A DNA stretch of 64,000 nt from Barthelona sp. PCE (GCA_040285745.1 JAUFOR010000008.1:496001-560000); one strand, 5' to 3'; positions 32,221-63,789 are shown, numbered from the stretch's first letter. Made by a program: numbers and translations. The notes: a model not told the origin generated them from the letters alone.

Positions 32221-33420
32221 ATGAAGATTGGCTTTCTACACCCTGACTTGGGCATTGGTGGGGCCGAGCGTCTAGTTTGCGATTGTGCGCTAGCATTAAA
32301 AGACGAGGGACACGATGTGACTATCGTCACTGCGCATCACGAGCCGACACATTGTTTCCCAGAAACTGTTGACGGCCGAATTCCCGTCAAGGTATATGGA
32401 GACTGGATGCCTAGACACATTTTAAGACGACTTTATGCATTTTTTGCCTATCTCCGCATGATTTATTGCGCTATAGTTATGTGTATTTTCCACAAATACG
32501 ATTTAATCATCGTTGACCAGGTGTCGATCCCCGTTCCTCTTCTTAAATGGAAATTCAAAAAAGTGATTTTTTATTGCCATTTCCCCGATAAGCTTCTTTG
32601 TACAAACAGATCTTTCATCAAACGCATATATCGCGCGCCGCTTGACTGGTTGGAGGAGAAAACCACTGGAGCTGCTAATGTTATATTGGTCAATTCAGAA
32701 TTTACCCTCCAGACTTTTAAGAAACACTTCCCTTCCATCACAAAGGAGCCCAAGGTCCTATATCCTACCTTCTTTATCGATACCGAAGCTGTACAAACTG
32801 CTGATACTTCTGTTTTAGATGCGGAATTGCTTGAGCCTGACACCCCAATTTTGTTGAGTATCAACCGTTTTGAACGCAAGAAGAATATCATGCTCGCGTT
32901 GGAGGCCTTCAATAGTGTCGCAGATACTTATCCTCGTGCCAAATTAGTTTTAGCTGGTGGTTACGATGTGCGTGTTCATGAAAACGTTGAAGTTCACGCG
33001 GAACTCGTCGAGAAGACAAAGGAATATGATCTGGAGGACCGTGTTTTCTTCTACAAATCATTCTCTAATGAAGCAAAGAACGCATTGCTTAAAACAGCTC
33101 ACATTTTGATTTATACACCCGATAATGAGCATTTCGGTATCGTACCCCTCGAAGCAATGGCTAGTGGTGTCCCTGTGCTTGCAGCCAACACAGGTGGTCC
33201 TCTTGAAACAGTCCACCCCATGAAAACAGGTCTTTTAAGTGATACCGATGTTGAAACATTTAGTAGAAGCCTTGACACCCTCATGAGCATGTTCAGCAAC
33301 GAGAATATATACAAGGAGTTTGCTTTTAGCTGCGTTGAACGAGTTCAAAACTTATTCAGCTTTGAATCTTTCCAGGAACGTCTGGCAACTGAAGTTGATG
33401 AATTGTATTCCCTGGAATAA
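32221..33420 (+). CDS. ALG2: Alpha-1,3/1,6-mannosyltransferase ALG2
   Basis: FLHPDLGIGGAERLV, HCFPET, FYCHFPDKLL, SINRFERKKN, YTPDNEHFGIVPLEAM. Confidence 0.96.
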   Translation: MKIGFLHPDLGIGGAERLVCDCALALKDEGHDVTIVTAHHEPTHCFPETVDGRIPVKVYGDWMPRHILRRLYAFFAYLRMIYCAIVMCIFHKYDLIIVDQVSIPVPLLKWKFKKVIFYCHFPDKLLCTNRSFIKRIYRAPLDWLEEKTTGAANVILVNSEFTLQTFKKHFPSITKEPKVLYPTFFIDTEAVQTADTSVLDAELLEPDTPILLSINRFERKKNIMLALEAFNSVADTYPRAKLVLAGGYDVRVHENVEVHAELVEKTKEYDLEDRVFFYKSFSNEAKNALLKTAHILIYTPDNEHFGIVPLEAMASGVPVLAANTGGPLETVHPMKTGLLSDTDVETFSRSLDTLMSMFSNENIYKEFAFSCVERVQNLFSFESFQERLATEVDELYSLE

Positions 33421-33515
33421 TTGTGCTATACATTTGTATTTGCCGCAAATACTCGCAAACATAATGTAATTTATTTAATCACTCACAAAAAAATAAATAA
33501 ATGAATTGAAAAATC

Positions 33516-33751
33516 AGGTGACATACAGGCGCTAGCCTTCAGACTTTATACTTGAGGTAGTAAACAGCGGAGGGGGACGAAGCGAACCGTCGTGTGTAGT
33601 AGGTGTCCGTAGGACCCGATACGGTTTTTCTTACCTTTTTCAAAAAAAAAAGGTTTTAGGCCACTTCCCGGACGAAACACCCTCTACACGTGGGAAGGCT
33701 CGCCTTCCCACGTGAGCGTTCCCCGACGTCAATAAACCTACTTCAGTATAA
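33516..33751 (-). mobile_element. 236-bp repeat element, left copy (Helentron/HINE-like non-autonomous element, or left arm of a long inverted repeat)
   Basis: Reverse complement of 36303-36538 with one mismatch (33592/36462); imperfect internal inverted repeats at 33546-33560 and 33738-33751; GC-rich within AT-rich flanks. The repeat itself is certain; the class is inferred. Confidence 0.75.
33687..33714. repeat. Perfect hairpin/palindrome CACGTGGGAAGGC-TC-GCCTTCCCACGTG (13-bp arms)
   Basis: Arms are exact reverse complements; also present in the right copy at 36340-36367. Confidence 0.95.
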
Positions 33752-33792
33752 GTTATGATTTTCATTTTTATACCCATTTCAAAGAGTTTTTA

Positions 33793-35904
33793 ATGCCAAG
33801 AATCAGAACTTTTGAGAGTAACATGCCTATATCTGGATTATCAGGCAATTTACAATTCTTTAACGCTGCAAGTACAGATGTTAAGGTTCACAACGATGGT
33901 TTTCACGTAATCGATACCAACTGCAGGCCTATAACTGTTGTTGAAGATGCTTGCTATGCCTGCATCAACTCCAAACCCGCTTTTAAAAATCCTTTCTTCA
34001 GATTTGCCTGCAACGATGTGGAAGGTTTTTACAGCATAAAAGTTGACGAAAACGTCGATAAACTGGGGTTCAATGTATATTTTATGGATTCTCCGACACT
34101 ATCAGATGAAAATGAACCAATAAGAGTTGTCTATCCGTTTGTGGATAAAGGAATCGTAGTTGACCACAATTCGATTCTTTTCTATGATAGAGAACATTGT
34201 ATCATTTCCATTAAAAATCTATATCATGATGTACCTTTACATAGTATGCTTGTCCTCAATATTAACACAGGAGCACATAAAACTATGCTTAATGGGTATG
34301 TATTCTCCCGTATAACCACGCCCTTCATCAGGCAACTGATTCTAACCAAGCATGAGATAGAACCTACGAATTCTGACTATTCCTTTTGGGATTTCCATCC
34401 TTCAATATTACACGGCGAAACAGATGGCAGCGAATATCTAGTGCACTATGGAGGTGATTGGCCGTGTTGGATATCAAAAAATTCCATTGATATAATTAAC
34501 ACTACTGCATTCTTTTTCTCCGTTTTCTCTGGTGGTCGTCATCATGCTTACATATGGCAAGTCGGTGGTGCCCTTATCGATATCTCATCTCTGCTTACAT
34601 TTGAATTAATGAAGTACACAAGATACTTTGAACCAACATACGCTATTCTCCAATCGCTTTCTGAAAAATCAATAGATATCCTTCTCAGCAATGGCACAAC
34701 GACGTTCCATATCATTGCAGGCGAGCATGATTGTATATATAGCTGTGATTTTCAAATTGAAAAATGCTATTGTGAACGAATAGCATTTTCTCCAAATTTC
34801 AATGCACCTCTGCCAAAGCTTTTTGGTGTACCATTGAATCAGGCATGCTTTGGAGAAGTTATTGTCCGTGATAGAAAAGACTTGTTAATGAAGGTTGCTT
34901 CTTTGAAATCTGCTTCCATAGTTTTCCCTAATGTAATATGTTCTGAATCCATGCAGCGTGACTGTAGAGTTTTCTTCCTGTTGGATAGAAACCTAATTGT
35001 GATGCAGTTCTTTTCAGATCCATATTTAAGTGGTTTTGATGGATGCATCGGTGAATTCGATTTTAGTGTCAATCAAGACTCAATAATTTCTATTGGACTT
35101 GTCGAAAACACAGAGGAAGTGGACGATGAGTTCTTGCAGTTACAATACTTCCTTGATAACAGAGATAAAGGTGTTTTTCAACAAAAAAGCTTTAAAATGA
35201 GTAATATCGAGTATCTGGGGTCAAGTGGCGAACACTTCCTAGGTATTTCTCGTAACGGACGTCGTTTTTCGTTGTCTATTGATGGAATAGAGATTTATAC
35301 AGGTACAATGTTCCGTAATTCATGTTTTACCAAAAATTTCTTAGCAATTGGAACGACGGAAGAAGTCATCTGCCTTAATCTCTCGTATGAATCAAACTCT
35401 ATAAACGTAGTATCTGAGGTTACACTTCCGCATTTGAATCAAACAGTTATCGCACCAGCTCCACTATCTGATCATGCAAATTTGCAAGTGGTTGTGGGTA
35501 AGGACTGGGATTCTCGTTCCACTTATGTGTATATTATTGATTGGTTAGGAAAGAGACACAGTCAAAAAGTAATATTACCTGATTTCTCTCATTTTATTGA
35601 TGGATCTCACTTAATGTCACCACAAGGTATATTCCGTATTGGATATGATGACATTCACGATAAGCCGACACTCCAATCCCTTGGTCATCTATTCAATAAG
35701 ATTTTAACTGAATCTAAACAGACTGTTAAATATGATCCATATGATAAGTCTTTTACCATTAAATCATACGATTTCAAGGATTTATCTATTGACCCGGTTG
35801 AAAGCATACAAAGAGTTAGCATTGCTGCTTTTGTTTCTCAAGCAACAATACAAAAAATCTATATGCCTGATTACGAAATTTACAACAATACATACAATAA
35901 ATAA
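33793..35904 (+). CDS. Orphan beta-rich hypothetical protein (703 aa), probable member of a lineage-specific family
   Basis: Long intact ORF with no signal peptide, TM or recognisable motif; C-terminal half loosely parallels 36666-37595. Confidence 0.8.
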   Translation: MPRIRTFESNMPISGLSGNLQFFNAASTDVKVHNDGFHVIDTNCRPITVVEDACYACINSKPAFKNPFFRFACNDVEGFYSIKVDENVDKLGFNVYFMDSPTLSDENEPIRVVYPFVDKGIVVDHNSILFYDREHCIISIKNLYHDVPLHSMLVLNINTGAHKTMLNGYVFSRITTPFIRQLILTKHEIEPTNSDYSFWDFHPSILHGETDGSEYLVHYGGDWPCWISKNSIDIINTTAFFFSVFSGGRHHAYIWQVGGALIDISSLLTFELMKYTRYFEPTYAILQSLSEKSIDILLSNGTTTFHIIAGEHDCIYSCDFQIEKCYCERIAFSPNFNAPLPKLFGVPLNQACFGEVIVRDRKDLLMKVASLKSASIVFPNVICSESMQRDCRVFFLLDRNLIVMQFFSDPYLSGFDGCIGEFDFSVNQDSIISIGLVENTEEVDDEFLQLQYFLDNRDKGVFQQKSFKMSNIEYLGSSGEHFLGISRNGRRFSLSIDGIEIYTGTMFRNSCFTKNFLAIGTTEEVICLNLSYESNSINVVSEVTLPHLNQTVIAPAPLSDHANLQVVVGKDWDSRSTYVYIIDWLGKRHSQKVILPDFSHFIDGSHLMSPQGIFRIGYDDIHDKPTLQSLGHLFNKILTESKQTVKYDPYDKSFTIKSYDFKDLSIDPVESIQRVSIAAFVSQATIQKIYMPDYEIYNNTYNK

Positions 35905-36302
35905 TATCATCTCCTTATTATCGTGTTTTGAATGGTTCATTGAGAGATGATAAGAAAAGAAGGAGCGATTTTTCCTCACCTTTACCTTTTCACTGGATTT
36001 ATATCTCACTTTGTACATCAATTGATCCATAATGAAGCTTTTTTCTCTAACAATAATCCATAAAATATTCAAAATAAATTCGTAAAATAAATACATTTTT
36101 TACTACTAAAAAGATTAAGTTTCTCTGCAACTATTCCAATTCTGAGGTTGATCCTAATGTTTTTTGATTGCTCTAATAAAAATTTTCTTGACGTTAACAC
36201 ATATTACGGTCGTTTTTATTGACTTTCTGTTTATGAATGTTTAGAGTGGTGACAGGAGAAGTGAATAGCAAAAGAATAGAGTATGTTGAGAACTTGAAAA
36301 AT

Positions 36303-36538
36303 TTATACTGAAGTAGGTTTATTGACGTCGGGGAACGCTCACGTGGGAAGGCGAGCCTTCCCACGTGTAGAGGGTGTTTCGTCCGGGAAGTGGCCTAAAA
36401 CCTTTTTTTTTTGAAAAAGGTAAGAAAAACCGTATCGGGTCCTACGGACACCTACTACACATGACGGTTCGCTTCGTCCCCCTCCGCTGTTTACTACCTC
36501 AAGTATAAAGTCTGAAGGCTAGCGCCTGTATGTCACCT
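36303..36538 (+). mobile_element. 236-bp repeat element, right copy
   Basis: 5' TTATACTGAAGTAG (36303-36316), subterminal CTACCTCAAGTATAA (36494-36508), short hairpin AGGC-TAGC-GCCT (36516-36527), then a T run; no target-site duplication seen. Confidence 0.75.
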
Positions 36539-36665: not shown

Positions 36666-38545
36666 TTACCAAACATCATAGGTCGAGAACACAGTCATTT
36701 CACATTGGTCTAAGATATGTGGAATAGAAACAATACGTTCTTCAATGTCATAGTTAGCAAAATTGTTGCTGAAACTGAAGACATTCATCCGTATTTGAAA
36801 ATCATCCATAGCGTCCTCAATAACTGCAAGAACACCACTACATGGTGTTATGAGCCGATATCCTTCATGGATTCTAATATCAGGTACACTGATTGATCGT
36901 ATTTTATCTGAAGCATCAACGAACAATACATCTTGGTTATTTATGAATGCACCAGGCGCAAAGAACATCGGTTTGACATAATTAAACAATGGAACATCGA
37001 AAACAGAAAATATTCCATCACCTTTGTACCTAATAAACATAAACTTCCTGCTCAATTTGACGATAACCTCAGATGGATCATAGGGGTTGGCAATACAAAC
37101 TTTAATGAAGCTTTCACAGTCATGAGAGACTTGTTCAGAAAGAACACCATTGTTGAATTGTAAAAAAAAAATTCTCTTTCTTTCATAGTACCAAATAACC
37201 TCACCAATAAGGTGAAAGCAATGTTTGCTCTGTATTTCTGCAATAATTTTGTCCTTCACAAACAACACAACTTTCCCAAAAGATTTGCGTGGAACAACAA
37301 CGAGTTCATTACTGAATTGAGGAGATTCACACTTACGCTCATCCACGACAGAAGGAAAGTTGGCCACCTCTTTGTTTCCGATATAGGCATGATACATATC
37401 GGAGGATCCCGTTACAACACAAATCTGCCATTGTGAAATATCCAGGTTAAAAAAACTGCTTACGTACATAATTCGGTGGCTTATGAATTCTTTCATCGGA
37501 GACAACAGCGTAAATCGATGGTTATAAACGTCCCATAACAGTCTATTGCTGACAATCTTTGATATATCAATATATGGATCTTGATAGTATATCATCTTGC
37601 TGCAGCAGCTGTGAACTGCGAATCTCCCAATGTTTCACACTTTATAATCGGGTTAAACTGTGTTGTGCATTCATGTGGATTGTAAACGGTACTATATACA
37701 GTATCTCCAAGCGTAACAAAATCCCATAAAGCACAGCAAACACGGTCCGCGTGAAGCACATCGCCTACAGCGGGGTCCCGTATAACCAATCCCTCATATC
37801 TGATGAAAGCATTCAAGTGAGGCCAAATAATTCTCATGAAATTTTTGATGACATTAGGTAATTCGTAATTTATCGGAACAAGAACAGAATATCCATCAAC
37901 TATCGAGTAATTAAAGTACTCTTCGTTATTTCTATGAAGAAAATGGCAATCGCCTGGAGTGATATCAATTCCATTGTATTTTTTTTTGAAAAGAGGATGT
38001 TGCTCAATTAAAATTGGTTCTTTTTGGCTTGAAAACGAGAGAATGGGACCAATTTCATATGATTTCCGATATAAGTATAAGAAATTATTTTGAAGAAGTA
38101 CACCAACATAATCGTCATACAGTAGCTCCATCTCACACATCTTTTGTGTGCACAAGTCGTGTATAATAAGCATGTTTTCATTAATTTCATTCATCCAAAA
38201 ACAATCATTAAGCAATTTTCCGTCTTTTTTAAGAGATAACTGAGATACATCAAAAAAACCGGTAATAATAAACACAGAGTCATCAAATCTGAGCATTTCT
38301 ATCCTTAATACTTCATCATCTTTGGTTTCACACCTGTAAAATACTAATCCAAATTCCGAAAGACTTAATTGTGATATTGTCGAATCAGGATCTGTTTTCT
38401 CAGCTGCAGGAGGAAAAATGATATTATTTTCTTGCTTGACAACCCCAGTAAAAGTTTCAGAACTAATATTGCTCTGAATAACAATGCTGCATTCGAAAAA
38501 AGTGTAATTAAAATCTTTCCCATGGTTAATGACAGGTCTTGGCAT
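36666..38545 (-). pseudogene. Hypothetical ~626-aa gene split by a 1-nt frameshift near 37633-37635 (pseudogene or sequencing error); probable paralog of 33793-35904
   Basis: ORFs 37592-38545 and 36666-37595 abut; adding one A in TGTGAAACATT joins them as KCENIGRFAVHSCCSKMIYYQDP. Both genes start MPR and end with RVSI/RIVSI…Q. Confidence 0.65.
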
Positions 38546-55900: not shown

Positions 55901-58900
55901 GAGATATAACCGTTACCACCGGAACAAGCGAATCCAGCAGGACAAATTGTGCACTCTGTCTGGTCTGTCAGATTAGTACGAGATGTGAACGTTCCTGCTG
56001 GGCAGGGGTAGGCATCGATAACGGAAGTACCCTCAGGACAGTAATGTCCCTCATCGCACTCCTCATCGGGGTTGATGAGACCAGTCGTTGAACATACCTT
56101 ACCTGCGGTACACAATGTGCAAGAGGTTGTGGCGACACCACCTGTACCAGTTCTGAAACGACCAGCAGGACACAGCGAAGGACTAGATGTGCCCTGGGCA
56201 CAATAGCGACCGGCAGGGCATATGATACAGTCGTTCAATTCCACGCGGTTGCTGGCACCGTTGTAGTAACCTGCGGGACAGGGATACTGAGTCGCGGAGT
56301 ATGTACCCTCGAGACAGTAGTGACCAGTTGGGCACGATGAGATACTGGTTGCACCCGCAGGACAGTATGAACCGGCGGGACAGATAGTGCAATCCGCCTG
56401 ATTAATGTTGCCTTGGTTGGGCGAATAGTAACCCATACCGCTGAACACACCGCAAGTTGATGGGTTGGCGGTACCAGCTGGACAATAGTGACCAGCAGGG
56501 CACTCGTTTGCACCAGAGATAGAAACAGTTCCTGACACACAATAGTGTCCCTCCTCACACTCAATGCATGCTGCACTAGACGAACCACCGGTGTTGGGGT
56601 TGTACGTTCCAGCAGGACATGCGGTCCAATGTGAAGGTGGGTTGCAGTAACCGCCTGCTGCACACTCCTTACCGGTTGGTTCGGCCTGCGTCTCACCCAC
56701 TTCGCAAATGAAACCGTTCGTGCAAGCCAGACAAGCACTGACACCACCGGGAGAGTATGTACCGTGGGCGCACAGTGTTGGAGCAACACTGGGCAACGAA
56801 CACTCGTAACCTGCAGGACAGATCGTACAGTTCTGTTGACCGCCTAGAGAGTAATATCCAGCCAGACAGCCTACAGGGGAAGAAGCCGCAGTGGGGCATT
56901 CGTACCCAGCCGGGCACATTGTGCATGAAGCGGCGTCGGCAGCACTGTAATAACCAGTCGAACAATCCTCACAGGTGATAGCACCAGCAGCGCTGTAAGT
57001 ACCAGCAGGACAAGTTTCTGGAGCAACGTCCTTATCCGGACACTTCGATCCTGAGGGACACTGGCTACAGAAGTGCATACCTGATGATGCCTGGTAGTAT
57101 CCTGAACTGCATGCTTCACAAACGATGGAACCTGCAGAAGAATAAGAGCCAGCCGCACAAAGTACAGGGTTGACAGCAGCGTTGCTACACTCGTAACCCT
57201 GAGTACATTCCGTACACGAGGCCTCACCATCAAGTGAGTAGAAACCGCTAGGACACGGGTTCTCTGTGTTGGTAGATGTTGAGGGACACGCCACACCAGC
57301 AGGGCATGACGTACATACCGTCTCTCCAGCAACAGAATATGATCCACTGGAACAGGTTGTGATACCAGTACCATCGAGGTTAGGGCATTCCTTACCAGCC
57401 TGACATGTTGTACACGTACCAGCACCAGCAGCGGAGTATTCACCAGCAGAACACGGGAGCTCAGCGGTAGAACCAGCAGGGCATCGTGTACCAGCAGAAC
57501 ACTGAGTGCAGGAAGTTGCACCAGCAGCAGAATAGTAGCCGGAAACACACTGTGTTGGGGATGTTGTGGGATTAAGACACTGAGAACCTGCGGGACAGAT
57601 TGTGCACTCGGTTAATCCAGTAGCAGAGGCGTAATATCCAGCGGGACAGTCGTAAGGTGTTGCAAGTCCAGTTGCGTTACAGAACTTGCCCAAAGGACAG
57701 TCGCTACAAGAGCCAGATGTAGAAGCTGAGTATGTTCCTGTTGAGCAGATGAGCTCAGCACTGGCACCTGTGGGACATTCGTAACCGGCAGTACAGTCGA
57801 GACACGTTGTAGCACCCGCAGAGGAGTAAGTGCCTGCACTACACTGTATAGCAGGATCGGACGCAACAGGGCACTTGGAGCCGGCAGGACAAATAGTACA
57901 GCTTGACTGACCAGATGCAGTGTTGTAATAACCAGAAGAACAACCAGTGCATGCTGTAGCACCTGCAGAAGACTTCTCTCCGGCCAGACAAGGCGTGGGG
58001 GAAGTGTCCATATCCGGACACCTCGATCCGGCAGGGCATATTGTACAAGTAGCGACGTTGCCCAGAGAGTAATATCCAGGGTCACACGCCTGCTCCGTTG
58101 TTGCGCCAGCGGGACAGTATGTACCAGCAGAACAAACTGTGCACGTCATAGCTCCTGCGTTGGAATAGAATCCATCGGCACACTGCACTGGGGCAGAGTC
58201 CTTATCTGGACATTTTGAGCCAGCAGGACATTCGAGACAGCTGGATTGGCCAGTGGATGGTTGGTAGAAACCGTCTTCACAAACGGAACAGGAAGAATCG
58301 TTGGAGAAAGTACCAGCAGCACACACCTCAGGAAGACCGGTTCCACAGTCGAGTCCTTGAGGACACTGCTCAGGAAGTCCTGCCTTATTGGGACAGTACA
58401 TATCAACTGGGCACGATTCGCATGATGTGCAACCGTATTCAACGCAATACTCGTTACTTCCACACGCTGTAGGAGAATCCATCAGTGAACTGGGACACTC
58501 AGTACCAGGAGGACAAGGGATGGGAACAGCACTGAAAGCAGGGCAGTATGAGCCAATGGGGCAGTCAATGGGTGTTGTGGTTGCGCCCATACAGTAGTAC
58601 TGAGCAGGACATGCAGCACAAGTAGTCTGATTTTCAGAACTTTGATAAGTACCAGAAGGACACGGGATTGGGTTGGAATTAGGTCTGGGAAGATAGAAAC
58701 CAGATGGTGTAGTTTCACAATATTCAGCTCCACGTGCGACAGTATAAGAACCTGAAGGACAGTCTGTAAAAGATGTCAAACCTGTTCCATAACAGTAAGC
58801 GCCCTTAGGACATACCTTACAAGCGCTCATTCCAGTTTTATCGCTGTAAAAGCCAGCATGACAGTCGTTCATATCACCACCATAACAGTAACTACCTGCT

Positions 58901-61900
58901 TCGCATACAGTGCATGAAGTCTGTGAGCCACCACTAGTGTAGTAACCGTCGGGACATACCGAAGGGCCTTCATATGGTGTGGGGCAGTAGAAACCAGCAG
59001 TACAAGCAGCACAAGCAGCCTGTCCTTCTTCGAGTTGATATTCGCCAGATGTGCACATAGTGGGAGAATCGTTTCCGGTGCCAGTACACTTGTGACCAAC
59101 TGGACAAATGATTTGATATCCAAGACCACCGGGAGTGTAGTAACCCTCGGAGGCAGGAGTACAGGAAGTATCTCCGGGCATGGAATAATCACCAGCGCCA
59201 CAAGCAGTACAAGCAGACTTGTTGGCGTTGGGGACAAAACCTCCAGGACAAAAGAAACCAGATTGACCTGGTCCAGCAGGGCACACCATACCGCTCTCGC
59301 AGTCGGTACACTCCTCAGAACCAGCGCTAGAATACTGTCCGTCAGGGCACAGCGCAGGGGCGCTCATACCTTCGACTGGAACGTAAGTGTTGGCAGGTGC
59401 AATCTCACACTGAGCTAACCCACCAGGGGAATAGTAACCCTTGGCACAGTTAGTAGGTGTAGTTGTTGTACCTGGACAGTACTTACCAGCTGGACAGCTT
59501 GAACATGAAGTGCTGTTCTCAGAACCCTGATATGTGCCTGGAGCACAAGGCAACGGCATAACATCAGAAGTGGGAGAAAAGTAACCAGTAGGTGTAGTTT
59601 CGCACCAAGCAGCACCACCGAGACTGTATGAGCCAGAGGCACATGCAACGGGTGTGTCGGTACCAACTTCCATACAGTACTTACCAGCAGGACATGCTGA
59701 ACACGAGCTCCTGCCATCGACAGGTGTGTAATATCCAGCAGGACAATCTGTTTTGCTGCCTTCTACGCAGAAGCTACCTGCTTCGCATACAGTGCATGAA
59801 GTCTGTGAGCCACCACTAGTGTAGTAACCGTCGGGACATACCGAAGGGCCTTCATATGGTGTGGGGCAGTAGAAACCAGCAGTACAAGCAGCACAAGCAG
59901 CCTGTCCTTCTTCGAGTTGATATTCGCCAGATGTGCACATAGTGGGAGAATCGTTTCCGGTGCCAGTACACTTGTGACCAACTGGACAAATGATTTGATA
60001 TCCAAGACCACCGGGAGTGTAGTAACCCTCGGAGGCAGGAGTACAGGAAGTATCTCCGGGCATGGAATAATCACCAGCGCCACAAGCAGTACAAGCAGAC
60101 TTGTTGGCGTTGGGGACAAAACCTCCAGGACAAAAGAAACCAGATTGACCTGGTCCAGCAGGGCACACCATACCGCTCTCGCAGTCGGTACACTCCTCAG
60201 AACCAGCGCTAGAATACTGTCCGTCAGGGCACAGCGCAGGGGCGCTCATACCTTCGACTGGAACGTAAGTGTTGGCAGGTGCAATCTCACACTGAGCTAA
60301 CCCACCAGGGGAATAGTAACCCTTGGCACAGTTAGTAGGTGTAGTTGTTGTACCTGGACAGTACTTACCAGCTGGACAGCTTGAACATGAAGTGCTGTTC
60401 TCAGAACCCTGATATGTGCCTGGAGCACAAGGCAACGGCATAACATCAGAAGTGGGAGAAAAGTAACCAGTAGGTGTAGTTTCGCACCAAGCAGCACCAC
60501 CGAGACTGTATGAGCCAGAGGCACATGCAACGGGTGTGTCGGTACCAACTTCCATACAGTACTTACCAGCAGGACATGCTGAACACGAGCTCCTGCCATC
60601 GACAGGTGTGTAATATCCAGCAGGACAATCTGTTTTGCTGCCTTCTACGCAGAAGCTACCTGCTTCGCATACAGTGCATGAAGTCTGTGAGCCACCACTA
60701 GTGTAGTAACCGTCGGGACATACCGAAGGGCCTTCATATGGTGTGGGGCAGTAGAAACCAGCAGTACAAGCAGCACAAGCAGCCTGTCCTTCTTCGAGTT
60801 GATATTCGCCAGATGTGCACATAGTGGGAGAATCGTTTCCGGTGCCAGTACACTTGTGACCAACTGGACAAATGATTTGATATCCAAGACCACCGGGAGT
60901 GTAGTAACCCTCGGAGGCAGGAGTACAGGAAGTATCTCCGGGCATGGAATAATCACCAGCGCCACAAGCAGTACAAGCAGACTTGTTGGCGTTGGGGACA
61001 AAACCTCCAGGACAAAAGAAACCAGATTGACCTGGTCCAGCAGGGCACACCATACCGCTCTCGCAGTCGGTACACTCCTCAGAACCAGCGCTAGAATACT
61101 GTCCGTCAGGGGCACAGCGCAGGGGCGCTCATACCTTCGACTGGAACGTAAGTGTTGGCAGGTGCAATCTCACACTGAGCTAACCCACCAGGGGAATAGT
61201 AACCCTTGGCACAGTTAGTAGGTGTAGTTGTTGTACCTGGACAGTACTTACCAGCTGGACAGCTTGAACATGAAGTGCTGTTCTCAGAACCCTGATATGT
61301 GCCTGGAGCACAAGGCAACGGCATAACATCAGAAGTGGGAGAAAAGTAACCAGTAGGTGTAGTTTCGCACCAAGCAGCACCACCGAGACTGTATGAGCCA
61401 GAGGCACATGCAACGGGTGTGTCGGTACCAACTTCCATACAGTACTTACCAGCAGGACATGCTGAACACGAGCTCCTGCCATCGACAGGTGTGTAATATC
61501 CAGCAGGACAATCTGTTTTGCTGCCTTCTACGCAGAAGCTACCTGCTTCGCATACAGTGCATGAAGTCTGTGAGCCACCACTAGTGTAGTAACCGTCGGG
61601 ACATACCGAAGGGCCTTCATATGGTGTGGGGCAGTAGAAACCAGCAGTACAAGCAGCACAAGCAGCCTGTCCTTCTTCGAGTTGATATTCGCCAGATGTG
61701 CACATAGTGGGAGAATCGTTTCCGGTGCCAGTACACTTGTGACCAACTGGACAAATGATTTGATATCCAAGACCACCGGGAGTGTAGTAACCCTCGGAGG
61801 CAGGAGTACAGGAAGTATCTCCGGGCATGGAATAATCACCAGCGCCACAAGCAGTACAAGCAGACTTGTTGGCGTTGGGGACAAAACCTCCAGGACAAAA

Positions 61901-63789
61901 GAAACCAGATTGACCTGGTCCAGCAGGGCACACCATACCGCTCTCGCAGTCGGTACACTCCTCAGAACCAGCGCTAGAATACTGTCCGTCAGGGCACAGC
62001 GCAGGGGCGCTCATACCTTCGACTGGAACGTAAGTGTTGGCAGGTGCAATCTCACACTGAGCTAACCCACCAGGGGAATAGTAACCCTTGGCACAGTTAG
62101 TAGGTGTAGTTGTTGTACCTGGACAGTACTTACCAGCTGGACAGCTTGAACATGAAGTGCTGTTCTCAGAACCCTGATATGTGCCTGGAGCACAAGGCAA
62201 CGGCATAACATCAGAAGTGGGAGAAAAGTAACCAGTAGGTGTAGTTTCGCACCAAGCAGCACCACCGAGACTGTATGAGCCAGAGGCACATGCAACGGGT
62301 GTGTCGGTACCAACTTCCATACAGTACTTACCAGCAGGACATGCTGAACACGAGCTCCTGCCATCGACAGGTGTGTAATATCCAGCAGGACAATCTGTTT
62401 TGCTGCCTTCTACGCAGAAGCTACCTGCTTCGCATACAGTGCATGAAGTCTGTGAGCCACCACTAGTGTAGTAACCGTCGGGACATACCGAAGGGCCTTC
62501 ATATGGTGTGGGGCAGTAGAAACCAGCAGTACAAGCAGCACAAGCAGCCTGTCCTTCTTCGAGTTGATATTCGCCAGATGTGCACATAGTGGGAGAATCG
62601 TTTCCGGTGCCAGTACACTTGTGACCAACTGGACAAATGATTTGATATCCAAGACCACCGGGAGTGTAGTAACCCTCGGAGGCAGGAGTACAGGAAGTAT
62701 CTCCGGGCATGGAATAATCACCAGCGCCACAAGCAGTACAAGCAGACTTGTTGGCGTTGGGGACAAAACCTCCAGGACAAAAGAAACCAGATTGACCTGG
62801 TCCAGCAGGGCACACCATACCGCTCTCGCAGTCGGTACACTCCTCAGAACCAGCGCTAGAATACTGTCCGTCAGGGCACAGCGCAGGGGCGCTCATACCT
62901 TCGACTGGAACGTAAGTGTTGGCAGGTGCAATCTCACACTGAGCTAACCCACCAGGGGAATAGTAACCCTTGGCACAGTTAGTAGGTGTAGTTGTTGTAC
63001 CTGGACAGTACTTACCAGCTGGACAGCTTGAACATGAAGTGCTGTTCTCAGAACCCTGATATGTGCCTGGAGCACAAGGCAACGGCATAACATCAGAAGT
63101 GGGAGAAAAGTAACCAGTAGGTGTAGTTTCGCACCAAGCAGCACCACCGAGACTGTATGAGCCAGAGGCACATGCAACGGGTGTGTCGGTACCAACTTCC
63201 ATACAGTACTTACCAGCAGGACATGCTGAACACGAGCTCCTGCCATCGACAGGTGTGTAATATCCAGCAGGACAATCTGTTTTGCTGCCTTCTACGCAGA
63301 AGCTACCTGCTTCACATGCAGTACATGACGTCTGGTTTGCCGCCGACGTATAGTACCCTGGTTCACAAATAGAAGGTGCAGAGAATACACTGGGTGAATA
63401 GAAGCCAATGGGAGTCTCAGAACAACTGTTTTGTCCTTCCAAATGCTGATAACCGCTTGGACAAATTGTTTGAGAACTTAAGCCAGTACCTTCACAATAG
63501 TGACCTTTAGCACAAAGCGTACAGGTTGTTTGGTTAACAAAAGCATTGTATGTGCCTTCAGGACAATCGTATTTATCGTTTCCGTCACAGTATGATCCAG
63601 CAGGGCAATCTTCACAAGAAGATACGGCGTAACTAAATGTAAGCTCAGTAAAATAGGGAATTATCGATAAAAAACACGTTAAAGCAAGAAAATCGATTTA
63701 ATAACAAACAATTGCATCTCAGGGCATGCAGTAGCCCCAATAGCCAACGCCAAAATGGCTATGAACACAAAAAACTGCAATTTATGCAT
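43903..63789 (-). CDS. Giant cysteine-repeat (GCC2/GCC3, ephrin-receptor-like CPxGxYC) single-pass membrane protein, ~6,600 aa; exon 1 63789-63710, exon 2 63632-43903, +1 G at 61109-61112
   Basis: Signal-peptide exon MHKLQFFVFIAILALAIGATAC splices in frame to YAVSSCEDCPAGSYC; ORFs 61106-63442 and 43903-61053 join if the extra G is removed; TM at ~51340-51414; long cytoplasmic coiled coil. Confidence 0.88.
58892..63313 (-). repeat. Intragenic tandem array: five 882-bp (294-aa) units, apparently identical
   Basis: Anchor CTACCTGCTTC recurs at 58892, 59774, 60656, 61539, 62421 and 63303 (spacing 882, 882, 883, 882, 882); shadow ORFs repeat identically. Confidence 0.97.
63633..63709 (-). other. 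77-nt spliceosomal intron (GTTTGT…GCTTACATTTAG), phase 2
   Basis: GT-AG, AT-rich; removal joins CAA TT|T TAC in frame with the Cys-repeat ORF and supplies the otherwise missing ATG and signal peptide. Confidence 0.85.

Follow-up and report, generated by a model that had tools for sequence, protein, structure and literature searches.

Each of the two long inverted arms that enclose a single 703-amino-acid (aa) open reading frame (ORF) in this DNA is, almost certainly, a solo terminal repeat, A+B, of a Ngaro-like retrotransposon with a tyrosine recombinase (YR; DIRS order) that has been active recently. The pair was probably formed by two solo AB insertions around a resident gene of a large host family, here called family F, and was homogenised later. 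The window, by which we mean the whole stretch of 64,000 nucleotides that was analysed, corresponds to C8:496001-560000 of the host genome assembly (G000; 10.2 Mb in eight contigs, C1 to C8). The host, Barthelona, is a free-living metamonad, a compact eukaryote with long uninterrupted ORFs.

The inverted repeat described in the initial annotation is present: 33516-33751 matches 36303-36538, read as its reverse complement, at all but one of 236 positions (33592, G, versus 36462). Its extent requires a small correction. Element copies begin with GGTGAC and finish with GTATAA, such that the element limits are one base shorter (235 bp, Table 1), and the outermost A/T pair of the 236-bp repeat belongs to the host flank. 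No other inverted repeat of the window is long; two further pairs measure 46 and 35 nt (approximately 72%). Several further statements of the initial annotation stand, namely that the 703-aa ORF is the only one between the arms, that its ATG is 41 bp from the left arm, that target-site duplications are absent (neither at each arm nor at the outer ends of the pair), and that the locus has no mobilising enzyme; such an enzyme is encoded by long copies of the element elsewhere in the genome. The interior, 33752-36302, is single-copy in the genome, with the exception of 43 bp. This AT-rich motif (window 36151-36198) recurs at C2:1015072 and in L126. The arms were also considered as a structured RNA gene, for which Rfam gave two chance matches, neither of them in the arms. 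The glycosyltransferase gene to the left is ALG2-like, a gene name taken from the initial annotation. On the right, the minus strand of window 36666-38545 holds ORFs of 317 and 309 aa with a four-base overlap, which may be one broken or mis-assembled gene of approximately 630 aa; a 642-aa ORF that adjoins another solo is similar to the second of them (E 3e-11).

Table 1. Features of the locus, in window positions, and contig locations of the second YR family.
Feature	Position	Strand	Remarks
Glycosyltransferase family 4 gene, flanking	32221..33420	+	PF00534, E 3e-33; ends 96 bp before left arm
Left solo AB repeat of YR retrotransposon	33517..33751	+	A 33517-33651, B 33652-33751; A outward, B toward gene
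Hairpin in B of left arm, perfected, 13-bp arms	33687..33714	+	Private variant: two additional nt, flipped 2-nt loop
AATAAA in B, left arm	33731..33736	+	Overlaps pol stop codon position of long copies; possible poly(A) signal
Host spacer, 41 bp, upstream of ATG	33752..33792	+	
703-aa host gene, divergent family-F member	33793..35904	+	Profile of other members; beta-rich
Host spacer, 398 bp, AT-rich	35905..36302	.	Single copy except 43-bp motif
Right solo AB repeat	36303..36537	-	A 36537-36403, B 36402-36303; same private hairpin at 36340-36367
Flanking ORF without Pfam family	36666..37595	-	128 bp past right arm
Second YR family, L092-L097	C8:7-17 kb, C6:17-27 kb, C1:493-509 kb, C8:1109-1119 kb, C2:2085-2095 kb, C8:32-42 kb		

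The initial annotation had proposed a genome-wide search with the repeat for the number of copies, their pairing and what lies between them. We found at least 43 matches to the arm DNA; two hairpin self-matches were dropped, and the remaining 41 were grouped into 30 loci. The pair in the window is the only one inverted around a gene, with no such pair at the 28 loci outside it. Outside the window, the only copies close to one another are a tandem of A plus a solo and a pair that differs in age and lies on the same strand with 774 bp between. Five of the 30 loci are long copies (L031-L035), outnumbered 25 to 5 by the others. All five share the plan A1-gag-pol(RT, RNase H-like, YR)-B1-A2-B2, with the B1A2B2 repeats downstream of the YR: A, the first 134 bases, is found by itself, and approximately 5.75 kb further on come the last 98 bases, B, with a whole A+B directly behind them. 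The long copies measure 6082-6086 bp and are 99.4-99.5% identical to L031, with interiors that are 99-100% alike. The arms correspond to A2+B2 of the five long copies with exact ends, the left arm differing from them by 3-4 mismatches and 2-3 gap columns.

The reverse transcriptase (RT) of the pol product was recognized by Pfam (RVT_1, E 1.4e-14, above the cut-off) and shows YVDD in translation. The YR is C-terminal; its Pfam match falls under the cut-off (E 2e-4), and the Atlas gave 0.97 to eukaryotic and integrase clusters. The catalytic-type YR residues R, K, HxxR, W and Y are conserved in a second element family, at 23% identity between the two. For the YR region there was no sequence relative in the PDB and none in the 50% protein library except the near-identical P0002. 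This protein, which its source annotates as hypothetical and assigns to Barthelona sp., is the only close database relative of the element protein, and the other RT matches were distant, mostly to integrase-bearing proteins, with no named reference elements among them. The RNase H region had no Pfam match; acidic residues in the pattern expected for it are kept in the second family. A gag-like first ORF of approximately 500 aa lies in the expected place and has no family match, the pol product has no methyltransferase match in Pfam, and approximately 250 aa between the RNase H-like region and the YR carry no assignment. RT, RNase H-like region and YR share one pol frame (1388 codons in L034, 1307 in L033 and L035). 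The usual separate YR ORF was not seen, and the second family likewise has a frame of 1446 codons. The YR is placed after the RT and RNase H-like regions, whereas in VIPER it is placed before them. Frame breaks occur in four of the five long copies, each time at different places; eight of the ten indel columns among these copies fall in runs of four or more and may be assembly error. The element is assigned to the DIRS order, and called Ngaro-like, from the anatomy of its sequence (split direct repeats, RT and YR). This parent element is very young, and protein searches brought up no close relative of it beyond P0002.

The junction of gag and pol in this element has an unusual layout. In L031 and L034, gag is closed by a single TGA, and the pol frame lies directly behind it and in frame (for example, L034:2655-2740). 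The junction codons are identical in all five long copies, and the first Met of pol is its codon 65. In predicted stability, the 70 nt behind the gag stop rank first among 602 windows of the element (z -4.2), with a very stable stem 7 nt downstream. The second family (L092/L093) has the same in-frame layout, with Lys-TGA-RAT at the junction in all six of its loci examined; the layout is therefore kept in two families that are just 32% identical in pol (over 934 aligned residues). In the second family, the corresponding stem did not reach significance (z -0.6), with 207 of 573 windows equalling it in stability. Reading of TGA as a sense codon is unlikely, as 3 of the 22 ORFs in the window end in TGA. 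Judged from these sequences, read-through of the stop codon is likely, and the gag-TGA-pol junction is a candidate signal for it. The open literature, covered by titles and the starts of abstracts, returned neither a read-through nor a single-ORF layout for Ngaro/DIRS elements, which does not establish absence from print, and no DIRS retrotransposons of metamonads were found in it.

The manner of integration is seen most directly at one long copy that sits within a terminal repeat of the second family, of which the uninterrupted form is known. The flanks of this nested copy rejoin exactly to the empty form, with nothing added and nothing lost by the insertion. Seventeen of 20 sites have no target duplication, and the other three have one of 2-3 nt only. 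The sites compared gave no target-site consensus for the element family. A palindromic target as a rule of the family was rejected, with an average of 3.05 bp at 20 sites versus 2.7-2.9 bp in controls. The second family (L092-L097) also has split direct repeats, and it is present in long and decayed forms with near-identical ends. Copies of the first family lie inside or beside second-family elements at three places. At L037:4416-4671, a solo is split by a 256-bp dispersed repeat, the same sequence being found in L096 (100%), in L152 (93%) and, in part, at other loci. At L038:4179-4560, A and 14 bp of B are fused directly to a whole solo AB, with the remainder of the first copy missing, which is possibly the trace of an AB multimer.

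The evidence for a shared history of the two arms resides in a hairpin in B. The private form of this hairpin, with two additional nucleotides and a flipped loop, occurs at two places in the genome, which are the two arms, and the older form occurs at 24. In the alignment, the insertion is missing from all 26 other copies that cover the hairpin; an older copy shows only the flipped loop. The computed folding energy of the private form is -23.1 kcal/mol, versus -11.0 kcal/mol for the older form. That both variant hairpins (2 of 26) should fall in this pair has a chance of 1 in 325. The arms otherwise match the long copies, save for the substitution at 33592, which is private to the left arm. 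The shared private variant indicates that the arms are not independent copies of surviving master elements and that they have a recent common history. The restriction of the 33592 substitution to the left arm means that homogenisation was partial or is older than that change. This bears on one suggestion of the initial annotation, that of two independent insertions of a young, dispersed element that targets the loci of the gene family. The element is indeed young and dispersed, but the shared private variant speaks against independence, and the case for targeting (see below) is weak. The remark in the same annotation on ongoing homogenisation fits best among its ideas, with gene conversion as the putative process.

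We therefore favour two insertions followed by conversion, along the following lines. YR integration would have put each arm in place with exact ends and no target duplication, as shown for the family. Recombination of A1 with A2 within a long copy could have reduced that copy to A+B, or a short AB intermediate could itself have integrated, two routes that are indistinguishable here. The two copies would have landed in opposite orientation on either side of an old family-F gene by chance together with tolerance of the locus. A template switch may then have made the B hairpin of one arm perfect, after which the variant may have reached the other arm, inverted and 2.55 kb away, by gene conversion; for these last steps, our confidence is only a little better than even. 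Besides the substitution private to the left arm, two observations weigh against the two-insertion account. In a simulation of uniform placement, an inverted pair within 3 kb was obtained in 12% of cases with 30 loci and in 5% with 20, so that chance proximity is just 5-12%. The account also leaves the unusual palindromic joins at the locus without explanation. These target joins form palindromes of 7 and 5 bp as they are, and of 9 and 4 bp with the interior flipped, compared to no more than 5 bp at 20 other sites; among the control positions, 2 of 3000 reach a 9-bp palindrome and 23 of 3000 reach 7 bp. Complementary host flanks are located at window 33506-33516, 33752-33762 and 36293-36302. 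The spacer homology and the palindromes do not decide the ancestral orientation of the interior.

An alternative is a single origin of the pair by YR-driven inversion. A long element at the left site would have recombined, through its B1|A2 junction, with host DNA 2.55 kb away. The gene would thereby have been inverted and A2B2 carried to the right-hand site, and repair that used the right arm as template would have reduced the A1-interior-B1 remaining on the left to AB. One history would then cover the nearness, the opposite orientation, the inward B ends, the exact ends and the shared variant. The internal junction is carried by all five long copies, the flipped join is the rare 9-bp palindrome at the first site, and published work on a Crypton reports inversions, linked to the YR, that involve a copy and a target site (10.1101/2022.05.23.493040). 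That precedent is a DNA transposon with a sequence target, whereas the present family has no target consensus. Furthermore, the unflipped join is palindromic too (7 bp), palindromes are lacking at the other 20 sites, none of the five long copies is an inverted or A1-interior-B1 intermediate, and two rare steps are required. We consider a single origin unlikely. Solo-to-solo copying, in which a mutated solo would be transcribed into a short AB RNA and, with a long copy mobilising it in trans, would insert close by, in the non-autonomous manner proper to a SIRE-like element, strikes us as quite unlikely. It would account for the private variant common to both copies and for their exact ends, and it is in keeping with the excess of non-long loci and with the one locus where A and 14 bp of B are joined to a whole solo. 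It also places the sole daughter 2.55 kb from its parent in a 10.2-Mb genome, and elements that move via RNA are not generally expected to hop locally. Past spread could not be shown for any other solo-only haplotype, and the few changes common to older copies fit older masters. The mobility of SIRE itself is left open in its description (PMC6681497). With its shared private variant, the present locus offers a test of whether such repeats are mere leftovers or can be copied.

The shared variant could also stem from assembly or polishing, with one arm overwritten, or from a lost master copy of both arms. The assembly does hold residual indels, as the indel columns in runs attest. On the other hand, the variant is 37 bp from unique flank, all four flanks of the two arms are unique sequence, and the arms differ at 33592; a lost master would need to have left both daughters side by side and none elsewhere. 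Both versions are improbable. A broader reading joins several of these elements: the DIRS-order element would have rearranged the host in place, with its YR inverting a neighbouring gene via B1|A2 or mobilising bare AB in trans, to leave twin solos around a gene of a large, variable family that may still flip, and its single RT-RNase H-YR polyprotein would be made by UGA read-through after gag. We hold this combination to be conceivable but doubtful.

In the two-insertion account, the enclosed gene is older than the arms around it. It had been described as an orphan, and this holds outside the genome, where only the protein itself was found among 5265 candidates of 386-1231 aa; inside the genome, it has many paralogues. 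A first in-genome search with the 703-aa protein gave three weak matches, one of which, used as the query, retrieved 64 matches at approximately 61 loci. The count for family F is a lower bound (at least 61 loci, with 62 of 89 candidates scored). Its members are approximately 710 aa long and 36-93% identical to the query member, have no Pfam family, and in many cases lie near contig ends. Against a profile made from 19 other members, with the window gene left out, this gene scored E 7e-13 among 349 ORFs. With 16-19% identity to 20 members, the window gene is among the most divergent of the family, which argues that it is an old resident and not fresh cargo. The apparent orphan thus belongs to a large, uncharacterised host family. 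The 703-aa protein has no Pfam family, and its Atlas feature matches are all below 0.9. A structure model built from 21 sequences (mean pLDDT 54) consists mostly of strands; the single-sequence model (pLDDT 30) was unusable. The matches to tandem WD-type proteins (TM <0.35) suggest, with low confidence, that the predicted fold of the family is tandem beta-propeller-like. We infer that the gene is a bystander of the insertions.

This view of the gene differs from another option of the initial annotation, a cargo-carrying, non-autonomous transposon whose terminal inverted repeats would spread family-F genes. The geometry of two long inverted arms around one gene is what such a transposon, of the Pack-MULE or composite type, would show, family F is dispersed with young copies of up to 93% identity, and an F gene is touched at 6 of the 27 element sites elsewhere. 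The arms, however, are direct-repeat parts of a retrotransposon, the pair is the only gene-bracketing inverted one in 30 loci, there is no duplication outside it, and the interior is single-copy. The F relatives are without arm pairs, and none of 20 further F loci, drawn from the family list after leaving out those already known to adjoin a copy, has the repeat within approximately 2.5 kb. Together with the divergence of the enclosed gene, which is no fresh copy, this renders the transposon extremely improbable.

The six outside sites comprise five that adjoin an F gene and one long copy that splits a divergent member. The latter, at C1:45787-54044 (L035, L121), divides its gene into parts of 287 and 412 aa. 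In the control, none of 96 ORFs in 20 stretches of 10 kb belonged to family F, compared to 6 of 54 neighbours (Fisher P 0.002). Spacers beside F genes are longer, with means of 924 and 528 bp (20 loci) versus 250 bp in controls. When counted per base of spacer, the test for targeting gave P 0.01-0.06, and 0.3-0.6 if the bodies of F genes count as targets. As the per-gene signal fades in this manner, we do not claim specific targeting of family F. Tolerance, by virtue of long spacers and dispensable genes, can explain the association as well as targeting does. Distant RT-bearing ORFs of approximately 1570-1600 codons (C8:779776-781170 and C3:958626-959957) are located a few kb from F genes, and their position suggests that mobile elements and family F share genomic islands.

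The remaining option of the initial annotation was a segment inverted by recombination. A dedicated system of this kind did not find support, as the arms are without the B|A junction that all five long copies carry. This junction is absent from the whole 64-kb window, and no recombinase was found among seven nearby proteins scanned. Since the arms lack the junction, the YR of the element has no intact site here, and any present-day flipping would be homologous recombination. Passive flipping of the gene by homologous recombination between the arms is possible, and conversion with crossover could bring it about with no switch machinery. A programmed inversion switch at the locus is unsupported. 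Integration of DIRS elements via a B|A-type junction is itself a model that is described as only partly tested (PMC7192593).

Inverted pairs of solo LTRs are remnants of retroelements that offer passive homology for conversion and inversion. The arms differ from such pairs in having no target-site duplication and in ends that derive from split repeats and YR integration. Solo AB repeats are likewise already described, for the Ngaro of Cafeteria burkhardae and for trypanosome SIRE, and the pair is thus a known kind of feature. In Cafeteria, isolated AB repeats are scattered in the genome and were likened to solo LTRs (PMC8547959). The element of that account is similar to ours in its length of approximately 6 kb, in the plan A1-[ORFs]-B1A2B2 and in the order of ORF in the gag position, RT, putative RNase H region and YR; its RT/RH and YR are separate ORFs, whereas here there is one frame, behind gag across one TGA (PMC8547959). 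An inverted solo pair with a shared variant is not among the features described there, in the portions of the account that we cite (PMC8547959). SIRE of Trypanosoma cruzi equals A2+B2 of VIPER and is, like the arms, a short dispersed A2+B2 repeat from a YR retrotransposon with split direct repeats; it measures approximately 430 bp, compared to 235 bp for the arms, and its origin is left open there along with its mobility (PMC6681497). The PAT-like elements (Pat1, Toc, Kangaroo) share with ours the split direct repeats A1-B1-A2-B2, the RT and the YR (PMC4157794). According to the same source, PAT elements encode a methyltransferase, none being detected by Pfam in the present pol product with its approximately 250 unassigned aa, and the YR of Kangaroo is inverted, whereas the one here is not. 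That source also cautions that classification of DIRS elements from structure alone misleads (PMC4157794).

Elsewhere in the window, at 58886-63300, five near-perfect tandem units of 882 bp lie inside a giant cysteine-rich gene. One spacing of 883 in this array coincides with a frame break near 61053-61106 and is probably an assembly indel.
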